This document shows, one piece after another, positions 1-16,104 of a DNA stretch of 64,000 nt (position 1 is the stretch's first letter; each line of letters opens with the position of its first letter). The stretch comes from a virus. Both the position numbers and the translations under genes were made by a program. The notes beneath the pieces were generated by a model. The model was not told the origin of the DNA. It ran no database searches and saw only the letters and a program-made list of their open reading frames with translations. The stretch lies in IMG/VR virus record IMGVR_UViG_3300034105_003474, positions 80,874 to 144,873 of that record. One strand, given 5' to 3'.

Positions 1-1882
1 TGTTGAAAACAAAACCTTGTTTCCTTCTTTCTGATGCTTTCCGTATTTCTGGTCCTAATGCTTCTATCAACTGAATATGACCTTCATATTTTCCAATATC
101 GGATTGCAGTTGAGCAATTTTTTTCATTGTTTCAACACGGTTGAATTCTTTTACTTCTGGAGTATTGCCAAGAGGTGAACGCATAAGTCTGAATTCTGCG
201 CTGAGTTGTGTTTCTAATTCCGCAAGTTTGGTTCGCGCACCTGCAACTCCACCTTGCGGTCTTACATATCCAATATATTTTCTTTTCGCTTCGGTAACTA
301 AAGCCGATACATCAGCATTGGGATTTGCCCTCAGTAAATCTGCAACTCTTGAAAGTTCTTTTTGGAAGTTTCGTACCGCAAGTTGGCGACCTTCATTTTG
401 GTTAAACAGTGCTTGATCGGCTGCTAAGCCAAGTTGTCCCAAAAGTTTTGGATCTCGCATTTGAAGTAATACTTCTTCAATAAGATCTTCATCTTCTTTT
501 TTGAATTTCGCCGCTTCCATCTTGGGGGCAACATGCTTTAGTTCATCTGGCACATCCCTAACATCGCGTCTTGTCGGAGCATTGAAAGGTTCGTCAATTG
601 GGTTTGGCACGCTTGACGGTTTCGGGGCAGGTGTTTCTCTTCTGTCGGAAGGCAGTTTATTGTGTTTCTCTACTTCTTTCCAAGCATTGATAACGTCATT
701 GAGTTCTTCTTTTAATTCACGCACATTCATTTGTTCGTTTGCACCAGAAACAACATCAAGGGGACTCAAATCACCCCTATTCTGTGCTTGCTGTATGCGA
801 TCAAGTTGTGCTTGATGTATCAAAATATTTCTTTTTGCAAGGTTTAGAGCGTTTGACCTTGGGTTCTGATCTGTTTGATTTATATCAGGGAAGTTAATTG
901 GATCGTTTATTATTCTTAAACGTGCGTTCAATACATCTCTGTTGATTCGTTCAACAAAAGTTTCATCATTTAGCACATTATTCAAGTTCATGTGCCTTAT
1001 TTTTTTGGGGCGAGCAGCCTCTGCCCTAACCTCTTCGGAACGAGCGGCATTGTCGCTTTCTCCGCGTGGAGCAGGTCGCGGAACTCGTCTTTGTTCTGAT
1101 TCGGCATCAAGCATCGCACCAATGTCGCCTTCGGGTTTCTTTCTAGGGCGACGAGGTTTAACCACCTTTGGTTCTACAACTGGTTTTTCAACAATGTTTT
1201 GTGCTTGTTGTCTTGGTGCTTTAGGCTTGTTTGTTGCTTCAACAACTGCACGACGACGGCGACGAGCAGGTGCTTCACCAGTACGAGGTGCACCGGGTTG
1301 TTCAATCTCACGATCCATGCGTCGTTGTTCTGATTCTCTAACATTTGGCGCACGCCTTCTCTGTGGTGCACGAGGAGCAGGTGGAGTAGGGGTTAACTCT
1401 CTTGGAGTGGCAGGTGCATCAACGGATGGTTGTCGGGTAACAACAGTTCGCCTACGGGCACCACGAGGACTTGGGGTATCGGAAACTTCTAATCTGTCTG
1501 CAACACCACGCAAACCTCGCTCTAGGCGACCTGCGCCACCGCTTTGAGGATTAAGTCTTGCAAGTATTCGTCGTTCACGACGAGCAATACGACGACCACG
1601 GCGAGCATCATCAACATTCTCTAAGCGTTGACCAATATCTGATATTTGATTAGCGATGCGTCGTGCGACACCCCAACCGCAAGACCGACCAAAGCGATCG
1701 GTTATCTGTCCGCCATACCGTGTCCCCGTTGGACAGCGCCAGCCTCCACGACGGTTGGTGCCGGGTATAGAAAGACTTGGATCCCACATGGCGCGAACAG
1801 CCTTGACTTCATAAGCAATAGTTGACGTGTTCCGTTCGCTAAGAAAAGATTTTGCCTTAAAGTCGGCGATATTCTGAAGCAT
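1..1882 (-). CDS. Large head-operon protein with shared N-terminal RCPxG module; truncated by the left window edge
   Basis: Missing from the ORF track because no stop lies in the window. ATG at 1882 reads MLQNIADFKAKSFLSERNTSTIAYEVKAVRAMWDPSLSIPGTNRRGGWRCPTGTRYGGQITDRFGRSCGWGVARRIANQI, nearly identical to the modules in 2200-5067 and 5492-8164. The same frame is open at the window edge (..EIRKASERRKQGFVFN). Confidence 0.85.
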   Translation of the reverse strand, partial: MLQNIADFKAKSFLSERNTSTIAYEVKAVRAMWDPSLSIPGTNRRGGWRCPTGTRYGGQITDRFGRSCGWGVARRIANQISDIGQRLENVDDARRGRRIARRERRILARLNPQSGGAGRLERGLRGVADRLEVSDTPSPRGARRRTVVTRQPSVDAPATPRELTPTPPAPRAPQRRRAPNVRESEQRRMDREIEQPGAPRTGEAPARRRRRAVVEATNKPKAPRQQAQNIVEKPVVEPKVVKPRRPRKKPEGDIGAMLDAESEQRRVPRPAPRGESDNAARSEEVRAEAARPKKIRHMNLNNVLNDETFVERINRDVLNARLRIINDPINFPDINQTDQNPRSNALNLAKRNILIHQAQLDRIQQAQNRGDLSPLDVVSGANEQMNVRELKEELNDVINAWKEVEKHNKLPSDRRETPAPKPSSVPNPIDEPFNAPTRRDVRDVPDELKHVAPKMEAAKFKKEDEDLIEEVLLQMRDPKLLGQLGLAADQALFNQNEGRQLAVRNFQKELSRVADLLRANPNADVSALVTEAKRKYIGYVRPQGGVAGARTKLAELETQLSAEFRLMRSPLGNTPEVKEFNRVETMKKIAQLQSDIGKYEGHIQLIEALGPEIRKASERRKQGFVFN

Positions 1883-1885
1883 GGT

Positions 1886-2203
1886 TTAAGCCTTAAAACT
1901 TTTTTTATTTGGAAGAGATTTAATTTGATTTTTATACATTTCTTCAGTTACTTGCCCATCAGAACTGTATTGTGCGGACATTGAATTAAGACGGTAAAGA
2001 ATATATTCCATTCCGCTTCCCTCTAAAGGGATCTCGTTTCGTGCCGACGATTCTGAAAGAATTTCAATAAGTTGATCAACAAGTTCTTTATCGGAAGCGT
2101 GTATTTCTACAAGTCCATCAATATTTTTTCCAGCGCAAGACCCATTTACCTTGTTTGTAAATGGATCCATGAATTGACCTATAAAAAACTCTTTCATGAT
2201 CAC
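1886..2203 (-). CDS. Small partner protein (105 aa) downstream of a kinase; candidate immunity/inhibitor
   Basis: ATGA overlap with the stop of 2200-5067; loose similarity to 5190-5486 (DP..., DGLVEIHASDKE vs DKGIIKYYSKDKD). Confidence 0.75.
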   Translation of the reverse strand: MIMKEFFIGQFMDPFTNKVNGSCAGKNIDGLVEIHASDKELVDQLIEILSESSARNEIPLEGSGMEYILYRLNSMSAQYSSDGQVTEEMYKNQIKSLPNKKSFKA

Positions 2204-5067
2204 CTTTGGTTACTTGGAATTATATTGACTATCTCATTTTCGGCGTTGCGAAGGTTTGCAAGACTTCGTACCATGCCATCATAAAGTGCTCCTGCTCGGG
2301 CTTTATTTGAGTCAGTCTTACTTACTTTCTGCAATGCGTCTGTTATGAATTGTTCACGACCGACAGCAAGTGTTTTTTCTGTTTGCACAACAACCTGTCT
2401 GTACACTTCTTGAATTCGCGCATAAGTTTCACGCCTTTGCGCGTCTGACATAGCGGGTAGTGCGGTGCGCATTGTGGCAAGAATGTCCTGATCCATTGAG
2501 AAACCCCGTTGGTAACGATCAAACAGCCCTCCGTGTGCCCTTCCAGCCCAACCCAAGTCCATCGGAACGACATGCGCTAATTTCTTGCCGTCTGGTAATT
2601 CCACTACACGACCCATACCGTTGCCTCCGTGGCGGTCGCTAACACCAAGAATATAGTTGGCTAGAACATTGGACAATCTTTCAGGAAGACCTTTATCTGG
2701 AAGAGCGTTCAGGGCTCCTTTGTTGAAATCGTACCCACCAGCAGCACCGCCGATTACTGCCCCTTCAGGCACGTCGTTGTGTGCCAGAGGGATCATGATG
2801 TAAGGGGTTCCTTTTCGGACTGTTCCAAGAGGCTTTCGTACATCTGCTTCAAGTTTACCGTCTTGAATTGCTCCGTCTTCCAAGATCCCTACAGCAGCCA
2901 AGTAGTTCCATCCAATGAGTTCGCCGACATTGTCGGCAGGTTTTGCAGCCTTGAAAACCCATCCCTGATTAGTCGGATTTCCATTTTCATCACGCAAAAA
3001 GTAAATTTTAGTTACACCTACAGCGCCACCGTTGGGTTGTACTTTTTTGAAACGCTTATTTGTGTCTCGTGGGTCTGATGAAGCGTTTGCCTCTATGGCA
3101 ATGTGCATGAATTTTGCTGGAACTTTTTGTATGTCTCCACCATTTTTTATATGGTCAATTGCTTTTTGTTCCGTATTAATTGTTCGGTCTTCTTCGGAAA
3201 CAAACTTTCCGATAGGGGAGTTCCTTCTGTCTATCTTTAACTTACCATGAGCATTTTTTGATCTTGCAAACTTACGGAATGGTGATTTCTTTTGTCCTTG
3301 AGCCGCTGCTCTTGGTGCAGTAGGTGGTTTAGGTGTCGTTGGTGAATTGTCTTCTGTCGCTGGGAATTCCCCTGAAGGACCGCCAGCAGCAGCATAAATA
3401 AATTCTGCGAAGTTGTTGTAGTCACTTACCGTATGGCGACCGCCATAGCCCTGTTCGTAAGAGTTCCCATCTGGTTCGCGTAGAGTAAATTTTGTTAATT
3501 TTCCATTACCGTCAAACTCTGGAGTAAGCGTGTAACCATTTCGTGTCCACATAGTTTTATCTGTGTTAAGAACCCAATTTGAATTTAAATTCAACTTTTC
3601 CAAATTGTTCAGTGGTTGATTATTAGGTGCTTGTCCCTGTTGTTGAGCAGGACGTGCTGGTCTCACAGGTCGCGCTGGTGCTGGCTCTGGAACATCATCG
3701 GCGGTTGGTTTGCGTGTAGCGCTACGAGCGGCACCTGCTGTTGTTGCCTTCTTGCGACGACCACGATTATTCCGTGGGCGACGAGCCTGTGGTGTTGGCG
3801 GTTCAAAATCTTGTGGTGCACTACGACCGTGAGCATCTTTCCAAGCGTCACGAAGATTAGGTTTGTTGATTGCATACCATTCACGCCGTGTCAGCATTCC
3901 TGCGTTTCCACCACCTGCGCGAATCTCACGAACACGCTTAGCGTATTCATCGTATTTTCTTAATACATACGGGCTGAAACCTTCGGTTGCACTTGCGTCT
4001 GATGCTTCGCGTGCTGTGAGTACATCAACGTTTTCTGCTTGTGGTGCAACGCGTGGGCGTGGCTGTGGTCGTCTTTGTCCTGCTGGCGCTGGTCGGCGTG
4101 CAGGACGAGGTGTTGACGCAGGCGTTGGCGCTGTTTCAGGAATAACATCGCGTCTCCTGTTTTGTGGTCTACGAGCCGATGGTGCACCTGCTTCAGGTAG
4201 TACATCTTCGCTTCTTTCGCGACCACCATTTCCGTTAACAACTCTGTCTAAAACACTTCCGGGTCGCAGGTCATCTGCTATGCGGTTGCCAAGTTCAGCA
4301 AAACCAGGACCGCCTCTTCGCTGTCGCGGTTTAGCACCACCTTCAAGACGATCAGCAATACCGCGCAATCCACCTTCAACGCGACCAGTCTCAGGAACTC
4401 CACCAAGCCGTCTAATCATTCGTGCGTTACGACGGTCAAGGCGACGCTTTCGTTTGTCGTCGTCTCGTTGTTCTAAGCGTTCACCGATGTCGGCGATTTG
4501 GTTGGCGATGCGACGCGCTACGCCCCAACCGCACGAACGACCAAAACGATCGGTGATCTGTCCGCCATATCGTGTCCCTACAGGGCATCGGAAACCACCA
4601 CGACGATTCGTGCCGGGAATAGAAAGACTCGGATCCCAAATTGCTCGCACACCTTTGATTTCAAAGTTGAAAGATGATTGGGTTTGGTCAGAGATAAATG
4701 ATGAAGCCTTGAAACTCAGAACATTTTGGAATTCTTCGTTTGAAAACTCAGAAAGTAAAACCTCAGATATTGAAAGAACAGGAAGGTTTTTGGTTTCTAC
4801 AATTTCCGGTTTAAGGAATGCAAGGTTTGCAACCTTTTTCTCTATCGCTGATCCTGATGGGCTTGGACCTTCAATAATTTTTGATGAGTCCATTGTTTGA
4901 ACTAGTTCAGGTTTTGTTATAGGTGTTTTGCCATATTCTTGACGGAGAAATGTGGCAACTTCTTTAGCGGCTTCGGTCATTGGCTTGAAGGTGGATCCTT
5001 CAGGGGTCGTTGAGACGACCATAAATGGTGTGTTGTCGCGATTTTTGATAATGAAAACTAGGTTCAT
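2200..5067 (-). CDS. RCPxG module + Arg/Pro-rich linker + PI3/PI4-kinase/HipA-like domain (955 aa)
   Basis: Gly loop GGAVGVTKIY, VFK lysine, helix-C Glu (NVGELIG), catalytic SDRHGGN, VPMDLG metal-binding motif. Confidence 0.85.
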   Translation of the reverse strand: MNLVFIIKNRDNTPFMVVSTTPEGSTFKPMTEAAKEVATFLRQEYGKTPITKPELVQTMDSSKIIEGPSPSGSAIEKKVANLAFLKPEIVETKNLPVLSISEVLLSEFSNEEFQNVLSFKASSFISDQTQSSFNFEIKGVRAIWDPSLSIPGTNRRGGFRCPVGTRYGGQITDRFGRSCGWGVARRIANQIADIGERLEQRDDDKRKRRLDRRNARMIRRLGGVPETGRVEGGLRGIADRLEGGAKPRQRRGGPGFAELGNRIADDLRPGSVLDRVVNGNGGRERSEDVLPEAGAPSARRPQNRRRDVIPETAPTPASTPRPARRPAPAGQRRPQPRPRVAPQAENVDVLTAREASDASATEGFSPYVLRKYDEYAKRVREIRAGGGNAGMLTRREWYAINKPNLRDAWKDAHGRSAPQDFEPPTPQARRPRNNRGRRKKATTAGAARSATRKPTADDVPEPAPARPVRPARPAQQQGQAPNNQPLNNLEKLNLNSNWVLNTDKTMWTRNGYTLTPEFDGNGKLTKFTLREPDGNSYEQGYGGRHTVSDYNNFAEFIYAAAGGPSGEFPATEDNSPTTPKPPTAPRAAAQGQKKSPFRKFARSKNAHGKLKIDRRNSPIGKFVSEEDRTINTEQKAIDHIKNGGDIQKVPAKFMHIAIEANASSDPRDTNKRFKKVQPNGGAVGVTKIYFLRDENGNPTNQGWVFKAAKPADNVGELIGWNYLAAVGILEDGAIQDGKLEADVRKPLGTVRKGTPYIMIPLAHNDVPEGAVIGGAAGGYDFNKGALNALPDKGLPERLSNVLANYILGVSDRHGGNGMGRVVELPDGKKLAHVVPMDLGWAGRAHGGLFDRYQRGFSMDQDILATMRTALPAMSDAQRRETYARIQEVYRQVVVQTEKTLAVGREQFITDALQKVSKTDSNKARAGALYDGMVRSLANLRNAENEIVNIIPSNQR

Positions 5068-5189
5068 TGTTTACTTTCCACATTCGTGAAGATATTCAGC
5101 AAGCCATGCAAATCTTGAGGTTGCATTATCGCTACCGTAAAATGGTATCACTAAGTGGGTGATATTAATTTTAGGTTGATGTCAATATA

Positions 5190-5486
5190 TTATTTGTTAT
5201 CTAATTTTTTGTGACCCAAGGCAACTAGGAAATTATTAATTTTATCCTTATTTGAACCCTTGTACTCAAGTATTTCTGCATGACGGTATGAGTACCCATG
5301 CAACATACTCTCAAGGTCAGCCCTATCCGACGAGCCTTTCTTGACCGCCAAAAAGTGTTCATTGTCCTTTTTGTCTGAATCTTTATCCTTTGAGTAATAC
5401 TTAATAATCCCTTTATCGTCCTCAACTATGACGAGTGGATCCACCTGAACTAGTGGGTCTTTGGAGGTGATGATCGCTGCTCTCAT
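5190..5486 (-). CDS. Small partner protein (98 aa) downstream of a kinase; candidate immunity/inhibitor
   Basis: Starts 5 nt after the kinase stop; aligns with 9876-10193 (MR.A..T, P.V..E.D.GI, E....G.SY). Confidence 0.8.
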   Translation of the reverse strand: MRAAIITSKDPLVQVDPLVIVEDDKGIIKYYSKDKDSDKKDNEHFLAVKKGSSDRADLESMLHGYSYRHAEILEYKGSNKDKINNFLVALGHKKLDNK

Positions 5487-5491
5487 GGTTC

Positions 5492-8164
5492 CTATGATCC
5501 TATAATCAAATCAGCAAGTCTGCCGGGGTCAACATCTGTTATATATTTCATTTTTCTTTGCGGTTTTACGCCAACCCTCAAAAGAGCCTGATCCCCACCC
5601 CTAGGGTTAGCGGTTCCATCCCCACCGGCTTTCAGTACATCTTCAACAACATTCATATACGGGTTTTTACGCTCTGCCTCACGGATGGACTTCTGAACCT
5701 CTTCAACGGCTAAGAGTATCTCGCGCCGACTTATTTGCCTATCTTTGAATTGCTGTCTCAATGTTGCAAGCATCTCGTTTCTTCTACCACCAACATCGTT
5801 GCCTAAAAAGCCTCGTAATCCTTCGTCGTTGCCATCATAATTTTCGTGAGCCCGCCCACCCCAGTTGACATCAAACCCAAGAGAAGGATCAATTGGGACG
5901 AACCGCTTCTTACCACTGGAGTCAGTCGCTACAAAGAAGTTCCCTCCATGGCGGTCTCTGTTGACCATGATGTAGTCCAAAAGTGTCGCTCTAACACGAT
6001 CGGCAGGTTTTATTTGCGACACGGCTACTTGATTTCTTCCGTCTGTCAGCACCCCATCAACGTAGTTCCCTGCGTGTTCATAAACAATAGCCCTACCAGC
6101 GCTGTTAGGGGCACCCGGTCCACCTTTTTGTTTCCCATCCATTCGCACACCACCGACAGGCATGCCAAGTCTACCAGCAAGATTATTGCCGATCACTTCA
6201 TGAATGTCTTCGTTTTCTGCATGGGCACCACTTTGGTATTTTAAGAAAAACTTGTTCCCAGTGATGGCGTCGGTAAACATATGCATATTGTTGGGAATGT
6301 TGCCGTTAACACCACCACCAGCATCTGATTTAGAGAATCTTGTTGTTGCACCGTGTAGTGCTTCACCCAATAACTCATCAGGGACATCAGCCAAATCTCC
6401 ACCTTTTTCTAGGTGGTCAATTGCTTGCTCCTTGGTATCCATACCTTTGTTCCCCAATGGAACGCTTTTCACATCAGGCAAACCGTCTTCACCTAATTTG
6501 TTCAGTTTTTCTGGTGCATGACCATCTTTTGCTTTTGGTGGTGAGACATCCCATCCACCTTCTGGTTCTGGTATGTCTGCTGGTCGTTGTGGTGGTTGCG
6601 CTGGTGACTGTACGCGTGGAGCGTTCTGGTCGTTGACATTATTATTTGGTACAACAACTTGATTTCGTTGCCTAAATTCAATAGCAGCATCAATTTCAGC
6701 AAGTCTTAATTCGGCAGCGGAAACTCCGTCTTTTATTTTTTCTTTTTGTCCCCACATTCGCAATAAATTATCTCTGGCTTCGTCTCTTTCTCGTTCGCTA
6801 CCATTCTTTTTACTCTGCCAGTCTTCAAAGGCTCTATCAAATCCTGCTTGAGCCTCTTTGAGAAGTTCTTGATCTCTAATTTTCTTTCCCAAAACTTCTT
6901 CTTTGGACATGTTGCGCAAATTATTGTAAGCGTTCGGCTTGTATCTTTCAATTTCCCCTTCTACTGCTTTGACTAAAGCCTCGTCTCTTTGCTGGTCAAA
7001 CTCCCTGCGAGGGTTTATGTCTCTTGCTGGCAGTGGCGGTGGACCTGCTCGTCGTGCAGGTGCTTCAGGTTCAGGCTGTGGCGCTCCTGCTTGTTGCCCA
7101 AATATTTGTTGGTTAACAAAATTGCCACGAGCATTACGCTTATTGTTGTCATCGTAATACCGACCAAACCTTCTCTCTAGTTCGGCTTTTTCTTCGCCTT
7201 CAGGGAAGTCTGGTTTACGCCAATACGCATCTTCGGGTAATCCGCGAAGATCGCCAAATCGGTTAACAACATTACGGATAGAACGATCGTCCGGTATGCT
7301 CCCTCCCAACTCGTCTGCTGTTGGGTTCCATGCGGGTGGTGGTGGAATTGGTGATGATTGTTCCGCTGGTCGTTCTGGTGGTTTTGGTGCGGGTTTTCTG
7401 CGTGGCACCTTTGTCGGTACAGGTTTTGAACCGTCAACAAAATCTGCTTCAGGTTTTCTTCTAACAGTTCTTTTTGCGCCTTGTTGTGTAGCGTTTCGTC
7501 GGCGTCGTCGTGGAGCATTTGGTGCGGGTGGTTCACCTGTGCGTGGTGCGCCGGGTTGAACTATTTCTCTGTCCATTCTTCGTGCTTCTGATTCACGGAG
7601 ATTTCCTCTTCTCCGAGGTGCCCGTGCTGGTTCTCTTGCTGGTTGTTCAGCATCTCCGCCAACAGGGATTCTTGGACGAGCAGGAGGTTCTATGCGTGCA
7701 GGATTTTGAACAGCGATTCGTGGACGAGCAGGAGCGCGTGGAGTAGTTACTGGTTTTCCAGTTGCTCCACCATCTAACGCGTCTGCCAAACCGCGAGCGC
7801 CACGCTCAAGTAAGCCGGGTTTATCTTGACGAGCCAAAAACCGTTGCACACGCGCATTCCGTTTTGCCAAACGAGCATTTCGTTTACGGTCGTCAACATT
7901 CTCTAGCCGTTCACCAATATCTGCTATCTGGTTTGCGATTCTCCGAGCAACACCCCACCCGCAAGACCGTCCATAACGGTCTGTAATTTGACCGCCGTAT
8001 CTTGTGCCAACAGGGCAACGCCAACCGCCACGACGATTCGTGCCCGGAATAGACAAACTTGGATCCCAAAGCGCACGAGCGCCTTTAACATCATAATTAA
8101 AAGTACTTGCAGTTTGCTCAGCGAGAAACGCGAGCGCCTTGTAATTCACTTCATTCTTGAGCAT
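5492..8164 (-). CDS. RCPxG module + Arg/Pro-rich linker + coiled coil + PI3/PI4-kinase/HipA-like domain (890 aa)
   Basis: GGGVNG loop, FFLKY, DIHEVIG, LLDYIMVNRDRHGGNFFV, VPIDPSLGF. Confidence 0.88.
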   Translation of the reverse strand: MLKNEVNYKALAFLAEQTASTFNYDVKGARALWDPSLSIPGTNRRGGWRCPVGTRYGGQITDRYGRSCGWGVARRIANQIADIGERLENVDDRKRNARLAKRNARVQRFLARQDKPGLLERGARGLADALDGGATGKPVTTPRAPARPRIAVQNPARIEPPARPRIPVGGDAEQPAREPARAPRRRGNLRESEARRMDREIVQPGAPRTGEPPAPNAPRRRRRNATQQGAKRTVRRKPEADFVDGSKPVPTKVPRRKPAPKPPERPAEQSSPIPPPPAWNPTADELGGSIPDDRSIRNVVNRFGDLRGLPEDAYWRKPDFPEGEEKAELERRFGRYYDDNNKRNARGNFVNQQIFGQQAGAPQPEPEAPARRAGPPPLPARDINPRREFDQQRDEALVKAVEGEIERYKPNAYNNLRNMSKEEVLGKKIRDQELLKEAQAGFDRAFEDWQSKKNGSERERDEARDNLLRMWGQKEKIKDGVSAAELRLAEIDAAIEFRQRNQVVVPNNNVNDQNAPRVQSPAQPPQRPADIPEPEGGWDVSPPKAKDGHAPEKLNKLGEDGLPDVKSVPLGNKGMDTKEQAIDHLEKGGDLADVPDELLGEALHGATTRFSKSDAGGGVNGNIPNNMHMFTDAITGNKFFLKYQSGAHAENEDIHEVIGNNLAGRLGMPVGGVRMDGKQKGGPGAPNSAGRAIVYEHAGNYVDGVLTDGRNQVAVSQIKPADRVRATLLDYIMVNRDRHGGNFFVATDSSGKKRFVPIDPSLGFDVNWGGRAHENYDGNDEGLRGFLGNDVGGRRNEMLATLRQQFKDRQISRREILLAVEEVQKSIREAERKNPYMNVVEDVLKAGGDGTANPRGGDQALLRVGVKPQRKMKYITDVDPGRLADLIIGS

Positions 8165-9883
8165 TTATTTTTTCTTCTTTGCGCTGACCAAGTCTGGCTT
8201 AATGAAGGTTTCGTACTGCCAACGAGGTGCTGTTCTTTCAATACCGTCAAGACCTGTGTAAGTAACAAGTTCCAACGGCTTAGGAACATTTCCTGTATCG
8301 GTGATAAACTTAAATGCACCTTCTGAGTTTTTGGCAAAATTCTCAATATTTGAAATAATGTTATCTTTTGTGCTTGATTCTGCAAGAGAGTTAATCATTC
8401 GTGGGAACTTGCGCTTCTCGCCAATCGTAAATGGTCGTGAACGCTCAATACTTACCACTACACCGTTTGGTGCAACAAACGCAATTTTACTCATTGAAGG
8501 ACCACCCAATAGTGCCAGATCATCTGCTCCTATATCAGCAGGTAGTTGAATGGCGCGAACCATTGCGCCGTCAACCATGTCAGGGTTCTCGCTAAAAGAA
8601 CGAAGAACAGATGAAGCAACAACAGGACGCAAAACCACTCCGTCTCTGCGGATCATTCTGCCTTCACCTTTTGGTGCGCCTTTAAGCAAGTTGATTGAAT
8701 CCGATACTGAACGGTTGAATTTATCTTTTTGGAATGCACCTGTTCGTGGTATCTGTGCCATGCGCTGAATTTGAATTGTTCGCGCTGCTGTCGGTGAACC
8801 TTCTAATACTTCGGACAGATTCTCTGCTCGCGCTTGTGGAAGTTTTGGTGATGCTGTCGGGCGCATTGCTCGCCTTATGAGTTCTAGCGGACCTGGTATT
8901 TCAAACAACTGCGCACCACAAGTGGAGAAACGATTGTCCGTGAAACGACCACCAAATTCAAAACCGGCAGGGCATCGTGCTTGACGCCTGCGATTAGGCT
9001 TGAGCCTGCTGAGCGCCCCACCGCCACCGCCGGGAATAAGTGCGCCATAAAGTCTTGAGCGAATAGGTGCGCTGAATGGGGATATGTTGCCCGGTGTTAC
9101 TACAGAACCAACTGCCTGAGCCGCTCTACCAAGTCCACTTGAAGAACCAACAAGACCTGCTTTGATTTCCATGTCTTCAGCGTCATCTTTTTCAACACGG
9201 TATCCACCGCCACGCTTCTTGTATTCGCGAACAAGCCAAGCGTTAGCGTAAGCAGAAGGGTATACATTGAATTTCTTTTTTGCTTCGGCTTTTACTCGCG
9301 CATAAAGTTCTTTGTCCGTTGGGATATTCGCACCTTTTAATGTGGTCTCATCAGATTTGAATGTGGACACATTGATCGGCTTGTTTTCTTCTCGGTTACC
9401 CGCTGTTTCTGCACGACGCTTTCTGCGAACAGCGGAATCAATTTCTTCTGCGGACATTCTCATCGCTGTAGATTTCTTTACACACTTAGGGTATTTACCT
9501 GAATCTGCGTCTCCGCGACCACATGACTCAAATCCGCCACCTTTTTTCGGGCGTGAAATATCAACCCATTCTTCTTCAAACCATTTCCCTAATCCACCGC
9601 GCTTGGATTCATCACCGATAAAGGTTTCTGCACCTAGTTTTGATGTACGAGACTTTAGGTAAAGTTTTGCTTTAAAGTTTAGAAGAGCCCTACTTCCGTC
9701 AAGCGGAGTTTTACGAACATCTGATCCTTTAGTGAAAAGGAATTTTGTTTTTGCATTATCAGGGTTAAAATAAATTTCCTCACCAGAGACAATATTCGTC
9801 CGTTTCATAGCAGTTTTCATACGCATAGACATACGGAGTTTTCTCGCAAAATACTCAAAGTCTTGGTTGAGATAACTACTCAT
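8165..9883 (-). CDS. Multidomain head-operon protein with DUF5872-like modules and an RCPxG module (572 aa)
   Basis: GLGKWFEEEWVDI..CGR..YPKC and PTDKELYARVKAEAKKKFNVYPSAYANAWLVREYKKRGGGY motifs (family name recalled, not searched); RCPAGFEFGGRFTD..C. Confidence 0.7.
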   Translation of the reverse strand: MSSYLNQDFEYFARKLRMSMRMKTAMKRTNIVSGEEIYFNPDNAKTKFLFTKGSDVRKTPLDGSRALLNFKAKLYLKSRTSKLGAETFIGDESKRGGLGKWFEEEWVDISRPKKGGGFESCGRGDADSGKYPKCVKKSTAMRMSAEEIDSAVRRKRRAETAGNREENKPINVSTFKSDETTLKGANIPTDKELYARVKAEAKKKFNVYPSAYANAWLVREYKKRGGGYRVEKDDAEDMEIKAGLVGSSSGLGRAAQAVGSVVTPGNISPFSAPIRSRLYGALIPGGGGGALSRLKPNRRRQARCPAGFEFGGRFTDNRFSTCGAQLFEIPGPLELIRRAMRPTASPKLPQARAENLSEVLEGSPTAARTIQIQRMAQIPRTGAFQKDKFNRSVSDSINLLKGAPKGEGRMIRRDGVVLRPVVASSVLRSFSENPDMVDGAMVRAIQLPADIGADDLALLGGPSMSKIAFVAPNGVVVSIERSRPFTIGEKRKFPRMINSLAESSTKDNIISNIENFAKNSEGAFKFITDTGNVPKPLELVTYTGLDGIERTAPRWQYETFIKPDLVSAKKKK

Positions 9884-10193
9884 TTTTTGCCGATTCTTTC
9901 GGTTCTTCAGGTTCCGCTATTTCTGCGGGCAAGGTTGTCTTCCACTTTTTAGCCAACTGCCTTAAAAGTGTAATATTTTTTTCATCCAGCACATTAGTAC
10001 TAACACTATGATACGACATTCCCGAGGTTGCTTTTTCAATAGTGTCCCTTTGGGACAGAAACAATTCGTTTGTCAAACTTGATGCGAACTTCGGGTCAGG
10101 GGCTACCACACCAAAAATGCCGTAATCCCCCTCAAGAAGAACATATGGGATACCTGAAACATCGGCACTCGGGGTAACTAGGGCGTATCTCAT
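9876..10193 (-). CDS. Small partner protein (105 aa) downstream of a kinase; candidate immunity/inhibitor
   Basis: ATGA overlap with the kinase stop; paralog of 5190-5486. Confidence 0.8.
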   Translation of the reverse strand: MRYALVTPSADVSGIPYVLLEGDYGIFGVVAPDPKFASSLTNELFLSQRDTIEKATSGMSYHSVSTNVLDEKNITLLRQLAKKWKTTLPAEIAEPEEPKESAKNE

Positions 10194-12043
10194 ACAACAC
10201 TCGCGACTATATCTTCCAACGCTGAGTCAGCCTTGAGTTTTGGTGGTTTTACAACAAGGTCTGCCAATTGTTTTGGGGTCATTGCTTGCATCTCTCTTAA
10301 GCGTGACGACGCCTTTCCGATGTCTGCCTGCATCTTTTCCATTTCTTTCAACTTTTCGGGAGACATCGCCCATTCTCCTATCAAATTACGATCTTTCAGC
10401 ATCTCGTCAAGTTGACTCAAGAGACGATTTTCCAATGAATCTGCGTCAATTTTCTTTATATCTTGGAGAACTTTTTCAGCATCCTCAACCAGTTTTGCAT
10501 GCTTCTCAACTGTCCCACCGTGGCGACTATTCAGTTCTTGACCAAGATAACCATATTGAAGACCGCCAGCAAACTTTTCTGCTGTTTCGCTGAAATCAAA
10601 AACGTTGAGAATAAAACTATGGTCAATGGGGACTGCGTCCACACCATCAGAGTTTTCAGCAAAAAGGATGTTTCCGCTATGCCTGTCACCATTAGCCATA
10701 GCAATATCCATGATTTGCATATGGAGTAGTTTGCGACTGTCCACCTTTGCCAATGTTTCAGGGGTGGCAGAGAGTATTTGTCCCTCATATGAGTTGTGAA
10801 CCAAATCGGTTACTACTCCCATGGCTGCCTGTGTCGGGGATGCTTGAACAACTCGCAAAGATGAAGATGGATACCCAAAGTCTTCTGTCATGGAAACAGC
10901 AAGAACTTCGCTCGCTGGCTCATACCATCGGGATGCTCCTCCCTTGGTCAGAGGGGCATTGCTTAACGGGGATTTTTTATCCCAAAGTTGTGTGCGTGAA
11001 GCGTATTTAACGCCCAACATTTGACCTGTAGTTCTATCACGCAAGCGGTTCATTCCAACCACTCCCCCACCAGTGCCAATAAGTTCAAACCTCTTCAGTT
11101 CCGCAATGTTCCCATCCTCGTCGTAAACATCAATATTTTCTAGGATTGCGTCAAGAACCAGAGTGTCGCTGATTTCGTTCAGTTTCCCGCCATTAGCGAT
11201 ATGTTGTGAAGCCTTTTCACCAGTATCAATGTTTTTATCCACGCTAGGTAAATCACGGGCAATGTTCCTACCGTTGGCATCAGCAACACCAATTTGTGGG
11301 TCAAAGTCTTTAGCCTTGGCAATAGCGCTGTTGCCTTTCTTGAACCCGCTAGGGGATTTGACCACGGGTGGATCAGCCTTTGGATCGTCTTTTTTATCTT
11401 TGCGACGCTTTAATGTCGCTAAGAGGAAATTCTTTGCATCAACGGTGGCGTCTCGTTTAATCTTCCCCGCTACTGCTTCCAACTGTTCTTTTTTCTTGTC
11501 AGATATTTTCCCGCGCCTATGAAGCGAGTCAGTAGCAAAGTCCAATAGTTGCGCACCGCCAGACTTCAATAAAACCATACCGAAAAGCGTAGATTGTGTC
11601 ATTGAATCTGAACCATCTGCGTACATGTAATCCATTGTTTGCAGGGCAATCATCGCCGCTGCTTTTGAACCATTTTTTACTTTTTCAGATTTGAAAATTA
11701 CCCGAGCGCCATCAATCAATTTTCCAGCCATGGAAGCCGCCCCGCGTGCTGCTGATTCAGCAGAAGGGGTGAGGCAGTTGGACATCTGCATGTCGGTGAA
11801 CTGATTTGCGTTAGGTGTACCGGGTGGGCATCGCAACTTACCCAAAGAATCAACTATCACCCCCGCAGCACGCGCCGCTCTATGACCAACAGAGGTTAAC
11901 TCTGGTCGGTCTTTTACAGTAGGTCCAAGGAAACCTTTGAACAGCAAAACATTCTCTTGAACAGCAGCAACAGATTTGCGGTATTCTGCAACTCTCTCGT
12001 TTGCGTCAAAAGCGCGAGACGATTTAATCATCGCCTCAACCAA
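10190..12043 (-). CDS. Divergent RCPxG module + PI3/PI4-kinase/HipA-like domain (617 aa)
   Basis: RCPPGTPNANQFTD..C; GTGGGVVG loop, GVKY, PASEVLA, MDIAMANGDRHSGNILF, VPIDHSF. Start codon uncertain (TTG). Confidence 0.85.
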   Translation of the reverse strand: MVEAMIKSSRAFDANERVAEYRKSVAAVQENVLLFKGFLGPTVKDRPELTSVGHRAARAAGVIVDSLGKLRCPPGTPNANQFTDMQMSNCLTPSAESAARGAASMAGKLIDGARVIFKSEKVKNGSKAAAMIALQTMDYMYADGSDSMTQSTLFGMVLLKSGGAQLLDFATDSLHRRGKISDKKKEQLEAVAGKIKRDATVDAKNFLLATLKRRKDKKDDPKADPPVVKSPSGFKKGNSAIAKAKDFDPQIGVADANGRNIARDLPSVDKNIDTGEKASQHIANGGKLNEISDTLVLDAILENIDVYDEDGNIAELKRFELIGTGGGVVGMNRLRDRTTGQMLGVKYASRTQLWDKKSPLSNAPLTKGGASRWYEPASEVLAVSMTEDFGYPSSSLRVVQASPTQAAMGVVTDLVHNSYEGQILSATPETLAKVDSRKLLHMQIMDIAMANGDRHSGNILFAENSDGVDAVPIDHSFILNVFDFSETAEKFAGGLQYGYLGQELNSRHGGTVEKHAKLVEDAEKVLQDIKKIDADSLENRLLSQLDEMLKDRNLIGEWAMSPEKLKEMEKMQADIGKASSRLREMQAMTPKQLADLVVKPPKLKADSALEDIVASVV

Positions 12044-12373
12044 CTATTTGTCGCTAGATTCTGACGCTTTGTTAAAGAAAGAAAGTGGAACAACATCATC
12101 ATCCTCTGCATCTTTTTTCTTAGAAGGCTTTTTCGTTTCCACTTTGGTTTCTTGTGCATCCTCAACAGGTTCATCAACGCTGATCTCTACTGATGCAGGT
12201 GTTTCAACTTCCAACACTGCTTCTTCAACGACAACTACTTCCTCTTTGACTTCAACCTCAACAACAGAAATCTGAACTTCAGGCGTCTCAACTACGGGCA
12301 CTTGTTCTTGTTTTGTGTCAAAAGCAAGACCAGAAGTGTTCACTGAGTCAAAAGGTTGGTTTTCTTTTTTCAT
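12044..12373 (-). CDS. Acidic low-complexity hypothetical protein
   Basis: 109-aa E/V-rich ORF, TAATG-coupled to the upstream gene. Confidence 0.7.
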   Translation of the reverse strand: MKKENQPFDSVNTSGLAFDTKQEQVPVVETPEVQISVVEVEVKEEVVVVEEAVLEVETPASVEISVDEPVEDAQETKVETKKPSKKKDAEDDDVVPLSFFNKASESSDK

Positions 12374-13905: not shown

Positions 13906-16008
13906 TTACATTGAGTCCATGATGTTGAGCAACGCATCAAATGCTTCGTCCTCTACACCATCAATCTCAACCATCACTCCGTCCTCGGTGACTTCTGATT
14001 TGATTTGATAATAATCCAGAATTGGATCCAAAAGTTCTTTGACTTCGTACAGTGATCGTTCAGCAGAAGAAACCATGAGAGTTTCTTTCTCATCCAAGGA
14101 CAATGACTTAGCCTCAATCTCTGAAGCCACACCACCTGAACTCAACACTTCCTTGAGAAGGTTGAAAGCGTTCTGTAGTTTTGTCATATTCCGTGAACTG
14201 ATAACCCGTCCTGCTTTGACTTCAATGTCTTCATCGGCGTCTTTGCCCATGAGTTCAGCAATAGCCGCCATCAGCATGCCCATCATCTGCTTAGGGTCTT
14301 TGCCTCCGCCACCGCAACCACAGTCATCATCGTCGTCAGAGTCTTTGTAGTAAGGCATTTCCATAACTCCGCCGTTATCGTCATCGCCTTCCATGACCCA
14401 GTTTTTCTTATCTGCCATGTAGTTGATGAAGTCAGGCTCATCATTCATGAATTGCTTCAGAGCCTCATAAGCCTTTTCGTTGCCCTCGTCTTCGTTCTCA
14501 AACTCAACATCTTCCATTTTCATGGTTTCTTCTGTTTCATCTGATTCAGCCAAACGGTCAGCCATAGCCTCCATCATTTCGTAACCCTTTTCCTCAGAGT
14601 CAAGGAAGTCAAATATTGACTTGATTTCTTCTTCAGTCATGGTTTCAAGCGATTTGCCGGGCTTGAGTACTCCCCTAAGACGGTTATTGAATTCGTCGTC
14701 GTCCCAGTTCAACTTGCGTAGTTTGCCACGACAGTTCTTCATGCCCGGATGATGGCATCCTTCGTTCGGCCAGAGACCAGTTGTTTCATGGTGAAGCCAA
14801 GCGCAAATATTACTCAACGGGTAAAGTTCAGGGTGGTTGGCGAGAATCACACGGCAACGGCGGAATCCGCCCGGCTTGCGCATGATTGGGCGCCAGTAGC
14901 GGAGCAGTTTTTCAAGGTTTCCACGACGAGGACCGTATCCACGGGTACGGGCAGTAACAATTTCTTGAGGAATGATACCGCCAAGTGGGTCAGCCTTTTC
15001 AGGTGACTTTGGTTTTACGCCTGCTGGTACCTGTGGATCTGCATCAAGGTTGTATCGGTCTTCGTACCTGCGCTCAGCGTCAGAACCGCTTGGCTTGTCT
15101 CCATCAACATTGATGTAAACAACCTGTGGCTTGACCCTTGTGGCTTCGCCGATCATAAATTGTCCATCTTCGTAATGATACGAAACGCGCATCGTGATGA
15201 TGCCTTGACCTTCTACACGGTGGTCAAATATCGCGCTATTTGCATCTGATTCACGAATCCGTACTGCGCCACCAAACTTCTTCGCTAATGCAAGTGGGAG
15301 GTTGGCTTCACGACTGCGGTTTGGCATAGGTGCATCAATTGCGTCATCGTCTTGTTCTGGCTTTGCTTCTACTTGTGGCTTGTTGCGTTGCATATTGCTT
15401 GCCATGAAGCGTGCAAGAAGCGAACGACCCGCTTCAGTAATGTTGCCATTTTCTTCTCGCATGTAACCTTTTTCGTCGTTGCCTTCAAACGACTTGATGG
15501 AAATCGTTCCCGTAAGTTGGTTTGCGCCATGAAGAACAGGGCTTGCTTCGTATAGTTCTACCTTCTTCAATACGTTTGCTTGGCGCTGTGGGTCAAAATC
15601 GGCATCAAGGGTTTTGTAGCCAATTGACCACTCTTGCTCTTCTCCGAAGAAAGCAACATCGGCAAAAGCCTGACGACCGCGTTCTGATTTCAGATTGAAC
15701 TGAACTTTGGCGTATAGACCGCCAATACCAGCGGCACGCATCTTCATTGGAAGTCGTGGATCCGATGGTGGAACTTCGTACATTTCAAGAACTTTGCCAA
15801 TTGGCTCATTCCAGTTGTGACCCCAAACAACACGGGGTTTGCGCCTCTTAAGGCTGTCTGTGAAAGCGCCCGGAACGATGATGTCGCCGACACTGTCCTT
15901 GTTGCCGATTCCTGCAACGAAACATTCAACTACGCCTTGCGCTTCGTCAATGTTGAACTGACCTTGTAGCGCCTTGTATTGCTGTGTTTCGGTCATCGTC
16001 GTAGACAT
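13906..16008 (-). CDS. HK97-family prohead protease with long C-terminal extension (700 aa)
   Basis: GNKDSVGDIIVPGAF, WGHNWNEPIGK (His), WSIGY (Ser), VELYEASPVLHGAN; directly downstream of portal. Confidence 0.92.
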   Translation of the reverse strand: MSTTMTETQQYKALQGQFNIDEAQGVVECFVAGIGNKDSVGDIIVPGAFTDSLKRRKPRVVWGHNWNEPIGKVLEMYEVPPSDPRLPMKMRAAGIGGLYAKVQFNLKSERGRQAFADVAFFGEEQEWSIGYKTLDADFDPQRQANVLKKVELYEASPVLHGANQLTGTISIKSFEGNDEKGYMREENGNITEAGRSLLARFMASNMQRNKPQVEAKPEQDDDAIDAPMPNRSREANLPLALAKKFGGAVRIRESDANSAIFDHRVEGQGIITMRVSYHYEDGQFMIGEATRVKPQVVYINVDGDKPSGSDAERRYEDRYNLDADPQVPAGVKPKSPEKADPLGGIIPQEIVTARTRGYGPRRGNLEKLLRYWRPIMRKPGGFRRCRVILANHPELYPLSNICAWLHHETTGLWPNEGCHHPGMKNCRGKLRKLNWDDDEFNNRLRGVLKPGKSLETMTEEEIKSIFDFLDSEEKGYEMMEAMADRLAESDETEETMKMEDVEFENEDEGNEKAYEALKQFMNDEPDFINYMADKKNWVMEGDDDNGGVMEMPYYKDSDDDDDCGCGGGGKDPKQMMGMLMAAIAELMGKDADEDIEVKAGRVISSRNMTKLQNAFNLLKEVLSSGGVASEIEAKSLSLDEKETLMVSSAERSLYEVKELLDPILDYYQIKSEVTEDGVMVEIDGVEDEAFDALLNIMDSM

Positions 16009-16074
16009 GGTTCTCCAATTAAAAGTTGTTTATTAAACAATAAACTATTTGGAGTCCCAAAACGGGAACACTTT

Positions 16075-16085
16075 AAGTATAACCC
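16075..16085 (-). promoter_or_regulatory. Candidate promoter element GGGTTATACTT upstream of the protease
   Basis: Intergenic, TATACT hexamer, repeated at 13839-13849. Confidence 0.45.
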
Positions 16086-16104
16086 CTGTGTTTTACTGAA
16101 AATA

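Follow-up and report, generated by a model that had tools for sequence, protein, structure and literature searches.

Results

A kinase array lies in the head-assembly operon of a large phage

The window analysed here is a stretch of 64,000 nt from the 144,873-bp (144.9-kb) IMG/VR genome of an uncultured myovirus, rated 100% complete, in which sheath, baseplate and large terminase genes were also found. This 145-kb myovirus is probably lytic. Three genes for large proteins with a kinase domain, each with a small gene directly downstream, form part of an array transcribed entirely from the minus strand (Table 1). The array has the prohead protease on one side and the capsid gene on the other, within a minus-strand head-assembly operon; a MuF domain is present at residues 641–728 of the portal fusion (Pfam).

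Table 1. Genes of the array, exchanged cassettes and neighbouring head genes (positions in the window).
Feature	Position	Strand	Evidence or remark
Fourth carrier protein, N-terminal 627 aa (931 aa in genome)	2–1882	−	RCPxG module and non-kinase C-terminus
Exchanged cassette 1: kinase 3 C-terminal ~485 aa and partner C	1883–3655	−	blastn, own locus against L014
Partner type C, 103 aa from ATG at 2197, pI 4.9	1886–2197	−	Starts 2 nt after kinase 3 stop
Kinase 3, 955 aa	2200–5067	−	Own-genome profile E 2.2e-92; no Pfam match alone
Exchanged cassette 2: kinase 2 C-terminal ~500 aa and partner B	5155–6664	−	blastn, own locus against L027
Partner type B, 98 aa, pI 7.9	5190–5486	−	Own-genome profile E 1e-40
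Kinase 2, 890 aa	5492–8164	−	Sub-threshold PF00454; own-genome profile E 2e-107
Non-kinase head-operon protein, 572 aa	8165–9883	−	Pfam DUF5872 E 4.8e-14; RCPxG...C motif copy
Partner type A, 105 aa, pI 5.0	9876–10193	−	ATGA overlap with kinase 1 stop
Kinase 1, 617 aa as listed from TTG	10190–12043	−	Pfam PF00454 E 1e-6, 29.3 bits; own-genome profile E 1.8e-97
Portal–MuF fusion and S78 prohead protease	13906–18309	−	Open operon shared with kinase array
S78 prohead protease	13906–16008	−	Pfam Peptidase_S78 E 6e-11
Portal–MuF fusion	16105–18309	−	Pfam Phage_portal E 1e-49, Phage_Mu_F E 7e-8
HK97-type major capsid gene	Outside window, on upstream side	−	Operon end; Pfam Phage_capsid E 8e-48

The large proteins share a common N-terminal module with an RCPxG...C motif, followed by an Arg/Pro-rich disordered linker and a variable C-terminus. 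The N-terminal modules are 56–68% identical within the genome and 42–100% identical across 49 viral loci; in contrast, the C-termini fall into unrelated clusters. Three of the C-termini are PI3/PI4-kinase-like (HipA-like) domains in which all catalytic residues are intact, and a profile search of the genome found three kinase domains. The catalytic Lys, the helix-C Glu, the DRHxxN loop and the metal-binding Asp are invariant in 12 diverse sequences that represent six kinase subtypes. A kinase-domain profile matched PI3K-alpha (E 2e-5) and CtkA (E 1e-3) in the PDB, and the matches to PI3K, CtkA, mTOR and ATM span the catalytic loop. Against PF00454 (PI3_PI4_kinase), kinase 1 exceeds the gathering score of 27.1, kinase 2 stays below it and kinase 3 has no match; the three are nevertheless related to one another (BLASTP, E 1e-12 to 7e-6).

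Relatives of kinase 1 begin at the Met at 12031. Its N-terminal part contains a weak RCPxG-type motif, and its kinase domain spans about residues 255–617 (GDRHSGN, IDHS). In kinase 2, the RCPxG module occupies residues 1–135 and an Arg/Pro-rich linker leads to the kinase domain (~545–890; NRDRHGGN, IDPS). Kinase 3 begins with a conserved 112-aa extension, followed by the RCPxG module (113–250), the linker and the kinase domain (~600–955; SDRHGGN, MDLG). The non-kinase protein encoded between partner A and kinase 2 is conserved rather than polymorphic, with 80–95% identity in relatives.

A fourth large protein, overlooked by the initial annotation, starts at 1882 and extends past the window edge. 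Its gene is followed, just beyond the window, by an 87-aa ORF (type G) that belongs to an unrelated helical family.

Each kinase gene is coupled to a small partner gene

The initial annotation described each kinase gene as followed by a coupled gene for a partner of ~100 aa, and this holds: the partner ORFs encode 98–105 aa and start at −4, +5 and +2 nt relative to the kinase stops. The ATGA overlap described for partner A is present at the stop of kinase 1, and partner B does start 5 nt past the TAG of kinase 2, with an AGGA that spans that stop. The non-kinase gene has no partner, as also claimed; the stop of partner A overlaps its start by 8 nt and the ATG of kinase 2 comes directly after it. 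The ATGA overlap reported for the third partner has to be corrected. The start listed for it (1886–2203) is a GTG within a GTGA overlap, and all type C homologues in the alignment start at a Met two codons in; the true type C gene is therefore 1886–2197, which begins 2 nt past the TGA of kinase 3 and is preceded by a Shine–Dalgarno-like site, AAAGGTGA.

Partners A and B are homologous, whereas sequence comparison does not show a relationship of partner C to them. The by-eye alignment of A with B in the initial annotation was confirmed by profile comparison with intermediates (hhalign 97.3%, E 1.8e-11, 87 columns), even though pairwise BLASTP gave no match between the two. Partner C scored 14% against types A/B, falling to 4% with richer profiles, and was not found at E ≤ 1 when the genome was searched with the A/B profile. 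The proposal of a single divergent family is thus right for A and B and has no sequence support for C. AlphaFold2 models of partner A (pLDDT 83) and partner C (pLDDT 84) share the order β-β-β-α-α-β-α, with one further terminal β in partner C (β-β-β-α-α-β-α-β). The partners are confidently predicted to form a small α/β domain, and the likeness of C to A is one of predicted secondary-structure order only.

The conserved GxSY noted in the initial annotation has a similar scope. Within the A/B family, the motif G-[F/M/Y]-S-Y is nearly invariant; the GMEY of partner C aligns with a short helix that precedes GxSY and is not positionally equivalent to it. Partners A and C are acidic (pI about 5) and partner B is not. 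Searches of Pfam, NCBIfam, PHROG and PADLOC returned no family match for the partners (in Pfam, none at E ≤ 0.01 for any of them), they show no catalytic motif, and their models have no clear relative among PDB folds, the best Z scores, 3.5 and 3.9, being to unrelated chains.

Partners occur strictly together with kinases

Across ~60 related viral loci, a small ORF follows every complete kinase gene that has downstream sequence. In a count that includes overlapping loci, 83 of 95 complete kinase ORFs had an ORF of 50–150 aa within 60 nt; ten of the remaining 12 lie at a locus end, and the other two had a partner that was missed by ORF picking. The partner ORFs are conserved at 63–99% identity in relatives. 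With this conservation and their presence after every such kinase, they are more than chance ORFs.

The association extends to distant relatives. When the A/B profile was searched exhaustively with HMMER against 1.84 billion representative proteins, 49 clusters only were recovered. All are stand-alone proteins of 81–175 aa except two long repeat-type matches (767 and 3137 aa), of which the shorter proved on inspection to be a repeat artefact. Among distant metagenomic A/B relatives, a kinase lies directly upstream in all seven informative contexts (HMM E 7e-12 to 5e-61, or Pfam PI3_PI4_kinase). A profile search of the phage's own genome, made for the A/B family, found no orphan partner copy. 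The initial annotation had named common occurrence of homologues away from kinases as grounds for giving up the pairing; they were sought in the ~60 loci, the seven distant contexts and, for the A/B family, the genome itself and none was found, so those grounds are absent.

Kinase C-termini and partners are exchanged together

When the C-terminal 350 aa of the kinases were clustered, partner type and kinase subtype mapped one to one, regardless of the array slot occupied. Two cassette replacements were seen. One phage (L014), collinear and 92% identical elsewhere, has in place of cassette 1 a kinase of an unrelated subtype together with a partner of type E, and similarity returns exactly at the ATG of the next gene (1882). 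In L027, a collinear relative with about 80% identity, a type F pair stands in place of cassette 2. In both, one breakpoint lies in the mid-gene linker and the other where the partner gene ends; therefore, specificity resides in the variable C-terminus and not in the common N-terminal module. Co-exchange of a kinase C-terminus with its partner is the signature of polymorphic toxin–immunity cassettes. Whatever the mechanism, comparative genomics firmly establishes the strict linkage and the clean boundaries of recombination for this clade of uncultured phages.

These data bear on the simplest account of the small ORFs, namely that they are unrelated head-operon genes that are linked physically to the kinases and have no direct interaction with them. 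Partner families A/B/F, C, D and E show no demonstrable mutual homology, as such an account would allow. It is nevertheless very improbable in view of the 100% association in the viral loci and in the distant contexts, the breakpoint exactly at the partner gene end in two independent swaps, the lack of orphan A/B-family copies in the genome and the one-to-one mapping in any array slot.

Discussion

We put at about one half the probability that the partners are cognate neutralizing, immunity-like binders of capsid-delivered kinases. We give the same even odds to the wider view of the region, in which this probably lytic myovirus has polymorphic effector cassettes arrayed within its head-morphogenesis operon. 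The array combines two of the features by which polymorphic toxin–immunity systems are recognized: a conserved carrier N-terminus with variable C-termini, and joint exchange of cassettes. The kinase domains themselves may be toxins, as suggested by their intact catalytic residues and by analogy with the toxin role of the HipA family (PMC10627512).

In such a scheme, the N-terminal module would direct the large proteins into the prohead, a route suggested by gene position, and the kinases would then enter the next host together with the DNA. During bulk synthesis late in infection, each small partner would bind its cognate kinase domain and hold it inactive, which would spare targets still required by the phage from phosphorylation. 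The partner might be left behind at packaging, or be stripped off while the kinase threads through the tail. The same partner may also neutralize the matching kinase subtype when it is injected by a superinfecting relative. For the A/B family, the likeliest contact surface would be the nearly invariant stretch G-[F/M/Y]-S-Y-Y...E-x-G-E-Y-x-G; that it acts as a pseudosubstrate is speculation. We assume a common mechanism across families A/B/F, C, D and E.

Given the setting of the genes in a head-assembly operon, the protected 'producing cell' of the initial annotation would be neither a bacterial producer nor a lysogen. It would be a cell late in infection, or one that a related phage superinfects. 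The phage looks lytic, and when 185,579 species genomes of bacteria and archaea were scanned by pattern, with limited sensitivity for the carrier module, neither that module nor the partner motif was found; thus, there is probably no lysogen in need of protection. What self-protection would bring to a cell soon to lyse must then be argued, and genes of a late operon fit superinfection immunity poorly. Partner B, being non-acidic, also counts against neutralization, as does the fact that dedicated chaperones or obligate activators predict identical linkage and co-variation.

Partners acting as dedicated assembly chaperones or packaging adaptors would keep the kinase soluble or partly unfolded for prohead loading and tail passage, like type III secretion chaperones, and would impose no catalytic block. 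The genes do lie inside the head-assembly operon, in the interval from protease to capsid; translational coupling suits stoichiometric co-production; the partners are small and mostly acidic; and effector–chaperone pairs likewise show strict one-to-one linkage with the cargo domain. Set beside type III class I chaperones, small acidic proteins bound to the effector N-terminus, two of the three window partners have the low pI, co-variation is with the C-terminal domain and not the N-terminus, and the fold searches point neither way. We regard this role as unlikely, since partner type tracks the variable C-terminus rather than the common N-terminal module, which is the natural handle for loading, and since a generic packaging need makes no obvious call for six or more unrelated partner families.

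A partner might instead regulate its kinase positively as a subunit, or be delivered along with it as a substrate or adaptor, and so be needed for kinase activity or target choice in the new host. Some injected bacterial kinases require a bound partner for activity. Linkage and co-variation suit such a role equally, and the Ser/Tyr-rich G-x-S-Y-Y loop of the A/B family could be a phospho-acceptor. Both N- and C-lobes of the kinase domains are complete, though, with all catalytic residues present, so nothing is visibly missing, and a co-delivered subunit would require its own route into the capsid, whereas the partners have no carrier module. Together, these points make an activating or substrate role quite improbable.

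Two groups of polymorphic toxins are among the nearest counterparts of the array. MuF toxins of temperate phages, which have downstream immunity ORFs, likewise join a conserved head-assembly N-terminus to a variable C-terminal toxin-type domain, and their delivery with DNA has been proposed (Jamet et al., 2017; PMC5576092), as here. They differ from the present array in their carrier, which here is the RCPxG...C module; no large protein contains MuF (PF04233), and the MuF domain is on the portal fusion. The payloads here are PI3/PI4/HipA-like kinases, whereas the word 'kinase' is absent from the main text of that report. Furthermore, three to four tandem cassettes are present per genome, and the phage is a myovirus of 145 kb for which the same limited-sensitivity scan found no prophage copies. 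In CdiA-CT/CdiI and Rhs-CT/RhsI (Zhang et al., 2012; PMC3482391), a conserved trafficking N-terminus is likewise combined with a C-terminal domain that is swapped as a cassette with the small gene downstream, and every C-terminal type is matched by a separate partner family, as here. In contrast to those systems, the kinases are phage-encoded and would be delivered by the virion rather than by a secretion system, and no orphan cassette arrays were seen.

The comparison with HipBST made in the initial annotation holds in part. HipS, of ~100 aa, neutralizes the HipT kinase via a residue inserted at the active site (PMC10627512), a precedent for the mechanism proposed here; in both systems a protein of about this size is paired with a HipA/PI3K-like kinase. 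HipS is a detached HipA N-subdomain 1, and its gene precedes hipT, as does that of the HTH protein HipB (PMC10627512). The order hipB-hipS-hipT was considered for the cassettes and rejected; the partner lies 3′ of the kinase, and the array has neither HipB nor any HTH gene. The kinase domains here look complete, unlike HipT, which lacks N-subdomain 1, and the partners match no HipA N-terminal family in Pfam and have no clear structural counterpart in the PDB. The immunity-gene logic is supported by the genetics (linkage, one-to-one typing and joint exchange), while the HipS-type gene order is the opposite of that observed.

Effector enzymes among late or head genes have been described before. 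In the proposed 'Gratiaviridae', the portal and capsid genes flank the gene of a HipA-family kinase, for which a role in the cell envelope or superinfection, not packaging, was proposed (Benler et al., 2021; PMC8008677). Phages and conjugative elements also encode polyvalent proteins, some of which contain kinase domains, and these have been proposed to be packaged and injected (Iyer et al., 2017; PMC5512222). Recombinational variability has also been suggested, as seen here. The kinases of polyvalent proteins belong to a truncated Ser/Thr/Tyr-kinase clade and are not PI3/PI4-like, and the passages on these kinases in the two reports describe no cognate partner.

If the partners do neutralize their kinases, toxin–immunity logic, known from secretion systems and from the MuF proteins of temperate phages, would also apply to kinase cassettes set in tandem in the head operon of a large and apparently lytic phage. 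The partners would then make up several new families of small proteins with specific control over PI3K/HipA-like kinases, and the array would be a concrete case of enzymes that are silenced in the producing cell and active after injection. A bolder form of this proposal, which we offer tentatively and hold to be doubtful, is that lytic phages possess a virion-delivered arsenal of polymorphic kinase toxins, with the partners as new kinase-inhibitor families, A and B acting via a G-x-S-Y-Y pseudosubstrate loop and the partners doubling as immunity against same-subtype kinases of competing relatives. Cassette exchange would in that case be driven both by host takeover and by conflict between phages. 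Natural cognate and non-cognate sets exist, since there are at least six kinase subtypes with a partner of their own, and because the cassettes are short and modular, specificity is directly testable with synthetic genes.

Position of the kinase–partner array

The source virus record (144,873 bp, rated 100% complete; the window is its bases 80,874-144,873) carries tail sheath, baseplate, large terminase and fibre genes on the plus strand from ~18.5 kb and is therefore that of a myovirus. The array lies in a minus-strand operon divergent from the terminase gene. Because the genes for a portal–MuF fusion and an S78 prohead protease precede it in the order of transcription, and those for a DUF3721 protein and an HK97-type capsid protein follow, the array is part of the head-morphogenesis module. 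Promoter and terminator scans were uninformative, since sites were rarer than in shuffled sequence.

Features of the array and its neighbours, in order of transcription
Feature	Position in window	Strand	Length	Remarks
Portal–MuF fusion	16105-18309	-	734 aa	single protein, first transcribed; Phage_Mu_F domain at residues 641-728
S78 prohead protease	13906-16008	-	700 aa	second transcribed; S78 domain confined to residues 26-169
492-aa protein		-	492 aa	after the S78 protease
Acidic protein	12044-12373	-	109 aa	after the 492-aa protein, just upstream of kinase 1; Val/Glu-rich
Kinase 1	10190-12043	-
Partner type A	9876-10193	-	105 aa	ATGA overlap with kinase stop
Non-kinase protein	8165-9883	-	572 aa	no partner downstream
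Kinase 2	5492-8164	-
Partner type B	5190-5486	-	98 aa	starts 5 nt after kinase stop
Kinase 3	2200-5067	-
Partner type C	1886-2197	-	103 aa	starts 2 nt after kinase stop
Fourth carrier protein	starts at 1882			non-kinase; extends beyond window
Type G ORF	-1176 to -913 (genome 79697-79960)		87 aa	helical; of another family
DUF3721 protein, then HK97-type major capsid protein	upstream of window	-		after the array

The initial annotation had placed the type A and type B partners correctly with respect to the kinase stops and had rightly noted that the non-kinase gene has no partner. Its ATGA overlap for the third partner, as 1886-2203, did not survive; most probably that gene begins at the ATG at 2197, as do all homologues. 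The long C-terminal part of the S78 protease protein may be a scaffold. The acidic 109-aa protein has conserved ends and a middle that is strongly variable among close relatives.

Kinase domains on a common carrier

A ~135-aa N-terminal module is common to kinase 2, kinase 3 (from residue 113 on) and the fourth carrier protein, with 56-68% identity, while only its core motif, R-C-P-x-G...T-D...C, is present in kinase 1 and the 572-aa non-kinase protein. Long Arg/Pro-rich segments come after this carrier module. The C-termini of kinases 1, 2 and 3 are kinase domains, at about residues 255-617, 545-890 and 600-955 respectively, and are mutually related by BLASTP (E 1e-12 to 7e-6); Pfam PI3_PI4_kinase scores 29.3 bits for kinase 1 (threshold 27.1) and 17.7 bits for kinase 2, and the kinase profile matches the PDB catalytic loop of PI3K-alpha (E 2e-5), CtkA, PI4K, mTOR and ATM. 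Twelve aligned domains representing six subtypes show no variation in the ATP-binding Lys, the helix-C Glu, DRHxxN or the metal-binding Asp, and, judged from sequence, the kinases look active. A Pfam search of the non-kinase C-termini gave no match.

Among known systems, those most similar are the MuF toxins, the polymorphic toxin systems of bacteria and the polyvalent proteins of phages (PMC5512222). In the proposed 'Gratiaviridae', a kinase of the HipA family is located between portal and capsid genes, the excerpted text of that report mentioning no partner (PMC8008677). New elements here are the carrier module, the PI3K/HipA-like kinases as tandem payloads, the partner families and the setting in a large, apparently lytic phage.

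Between carrier module and C-terminal domain, the large proteins (window 2-8164, minus strand) have linkers of 200-400 aa with an extreme content of Arg, Pro and Ala, and it is in these linkers that the recombination breakpoints are located. Residues 1-112 of kinase 3 (window 4732-5067, minus strand) form a conserved extension before the RCPxG module, shared with numerous carriers of related loci, its consensus being M..VF.I.NR...P[FY]..V....G..F.P....K.....EY...PITK.EL; in kinase 3 its strand/helix pattern resembles that of the partners, but none of the partner types is matched significantly by profile. The 572-aa protein is non-polymorphic and contains DUF5872 (residues 188-228), one RCPxG...C copy (residues 295-323) and a phrog_23735 segment; it may have a structural part in the loading system to which the carriers belong. 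In more distant phages (L062:5572-11865 and the L033 and L052 loci) carrier proteins reach 1,600-2,100 aa, some with the kinase domain far from the C-terminus, an architecture more varied than in this genome.

Relationships among the partners

Pairwise BLASTP among the three partners gave no match. With profiles built from the partners of 60 related IMG/VR loci, types A and B proved homologous (hhalign 97.3%, E 1.8e-11, 87 columns), a relationship visible only with profiles, which bears out their earlier alignment by eye. The consensus of this A/B family is M-[RK]-Y...P-[ILV]-V...E-x-x-G...L-E...G-[FMY]-S-Y-Y...E-x-G-E-Y-x-G...K-x-[KR]-[IV]-D. Type F, from related viral loci, is weakly linked to this family via a subgroup (74% to A/B, 87% between F subgroups). 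Types C, D and E could not be joined to it, with hhalign probabilities of only 1-22%; for type C these were 14% and 4%, and the A/B profile run on its own genome did not detect it. The proposal of one divergent family for all three partners is thus upheld for A and B but not for C.

No partner was matched in Pfam, PHROGs, NCBIfam or PADLOC. No relative was found among GenBank phages, either with the locus by megablast or with partner A, partner B and kinase 2 by tblastn, the sole match being at chance level (a mycobacteriophage RHH protein, E 0.4); a word-based search with partner A returned only relatives of at least 70% identity, and an ESM Atlas feature search with partner B gave no usable match.

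AF2 models of partners A (pLDDT 83, pTM 0.71) and C (pLDDT 84, pTM 0.78) are confident and have the same order of elements, namely three strands, long helix, short helix, strand and helix, with one extra final strand in type C. A common fold for the two is plausible on these models. The GxSY motif pointed out previously is part of the A/B consensus, but the "GMEY" of type C falls, in the shared order, in the short helix preceding the GxSY loop of type A, not in the loop itself. Foldseek of both models against PDB found nothing at E<=1e-3; best VIA-align Z values were 3.5 and 3.9, the two models having weak rows of RWD/UBC-like and Mediator Med18/20 proteins in common, and BFVD returned only an 83%-identical orthologue from an uncultured phage. 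As modelled, neither partner has a clear relative in PDB or BFVD.

Coupling of partner to kinase

Across the related viral loci, 83 of 95 complete kinase ORFs (a count that includes overlapping loci) have a 50-150-aa ORF within 60 nt downstream. Of the other 12, ten run up to the end of the locus; the last two, in L053 and L054, only seemed to lack a partner, which is present but had been dropped in ORF selection. When 1.84 billion representative proteins were searched exhaustively by HMMER with the A/B profile, only 49 clusters emerged, all standalone proteins of 81-175 aa except for two long repeat-type matches, one of 767 aa, a repeat protein rejected as spurious, and one of 3137 aa with 25 matched stretches. 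The encoding contigs of eight distant A/B-family members were inspected; seven were informative, and in each of these the partner is immediately preceded by a gene that is recognised by the kinase profile (E 7e-12 to 5e-61) or by Pfam PI3_PI4_kinase. On contigs of sufficient length, DUF3721 and capsid genes come next. In the genome itself, profile searches found three kinase domains and no orphan A/B-family partner. Homologues commonly occurring without kinases, which would have spoken against the immunity role first proposed, were therefore not encountered. It is very improbable that the partner is merely linked to the kinase gene.

Exchange of kinase domain and partner as a unit

When the last 350 aa of the large proteins were clustered by single linkage, each cluster carried exactly one partner type, whatever slot of the array the protein occupied; clustering the partners by BLAST agreed with this, apart from a merging of A and B with part of F. 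In a relative that is collinear over 8.5 kb at 92% DNA identity, all similarity disappears at window 3655 and returns at the ATG of the next gene; the stretch without any, exactly 3655 to 1883, covers the C-terminal ~485 aa of kinase 3 together with its partner. There the relative has a different kinase subtype, paired with a type E partner. In a second relative, window 6664-5155 (the C-terminus of kinase 2 and partner B) is replaced by a type F pair. From the breakpoints of both swaps and the subtype clustering it follows that kinase domain and partner are the unit of exchange and that the determinant of specificity lies in the variable C-terminus.

Function of the partners

Active-looking kinases are strictly coupled to subtype-specific partners and recombine jointly with them. 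We favour, with a probability of roughly 0.5, neutralising, immunity-like partners, because the cassette genetics match those of polymorphic toxin–immunity systems and there are precedents among HipA-family kinases, toxins that small antitoxin proteins are known to restrain (PMC10627512), and phage MuF toxins, which are accompanied by small downstream ORFs (PMC5576092). The carrier module would load the large proteins into the prohead, and the partner would bind and silence its cognate kinase domain in the producing cell. Against neutralisation stands that the phage is apparently lytic, no copy of the carrier module or of the partner motif having been found in 185,579 bacterial and archaeal species genomes. 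The same coupling and joint exchange could belong to a dedicated chaperone, which we regard as rather unlikely, or to an activator or substrate of the kinase, which we regard as less likely still.

The type G family is found after eight of eight non-kinase carriers such as the fourth carrier protein, and one distant phage (L065:6001-6528) has a 175-aa protein in which a type G sequence is joined to the C-terminus of an A/B-type kinase partner (HMM E 2e-8). The type G ORF may thus be a marker of the array's end, not a component of a single effector.
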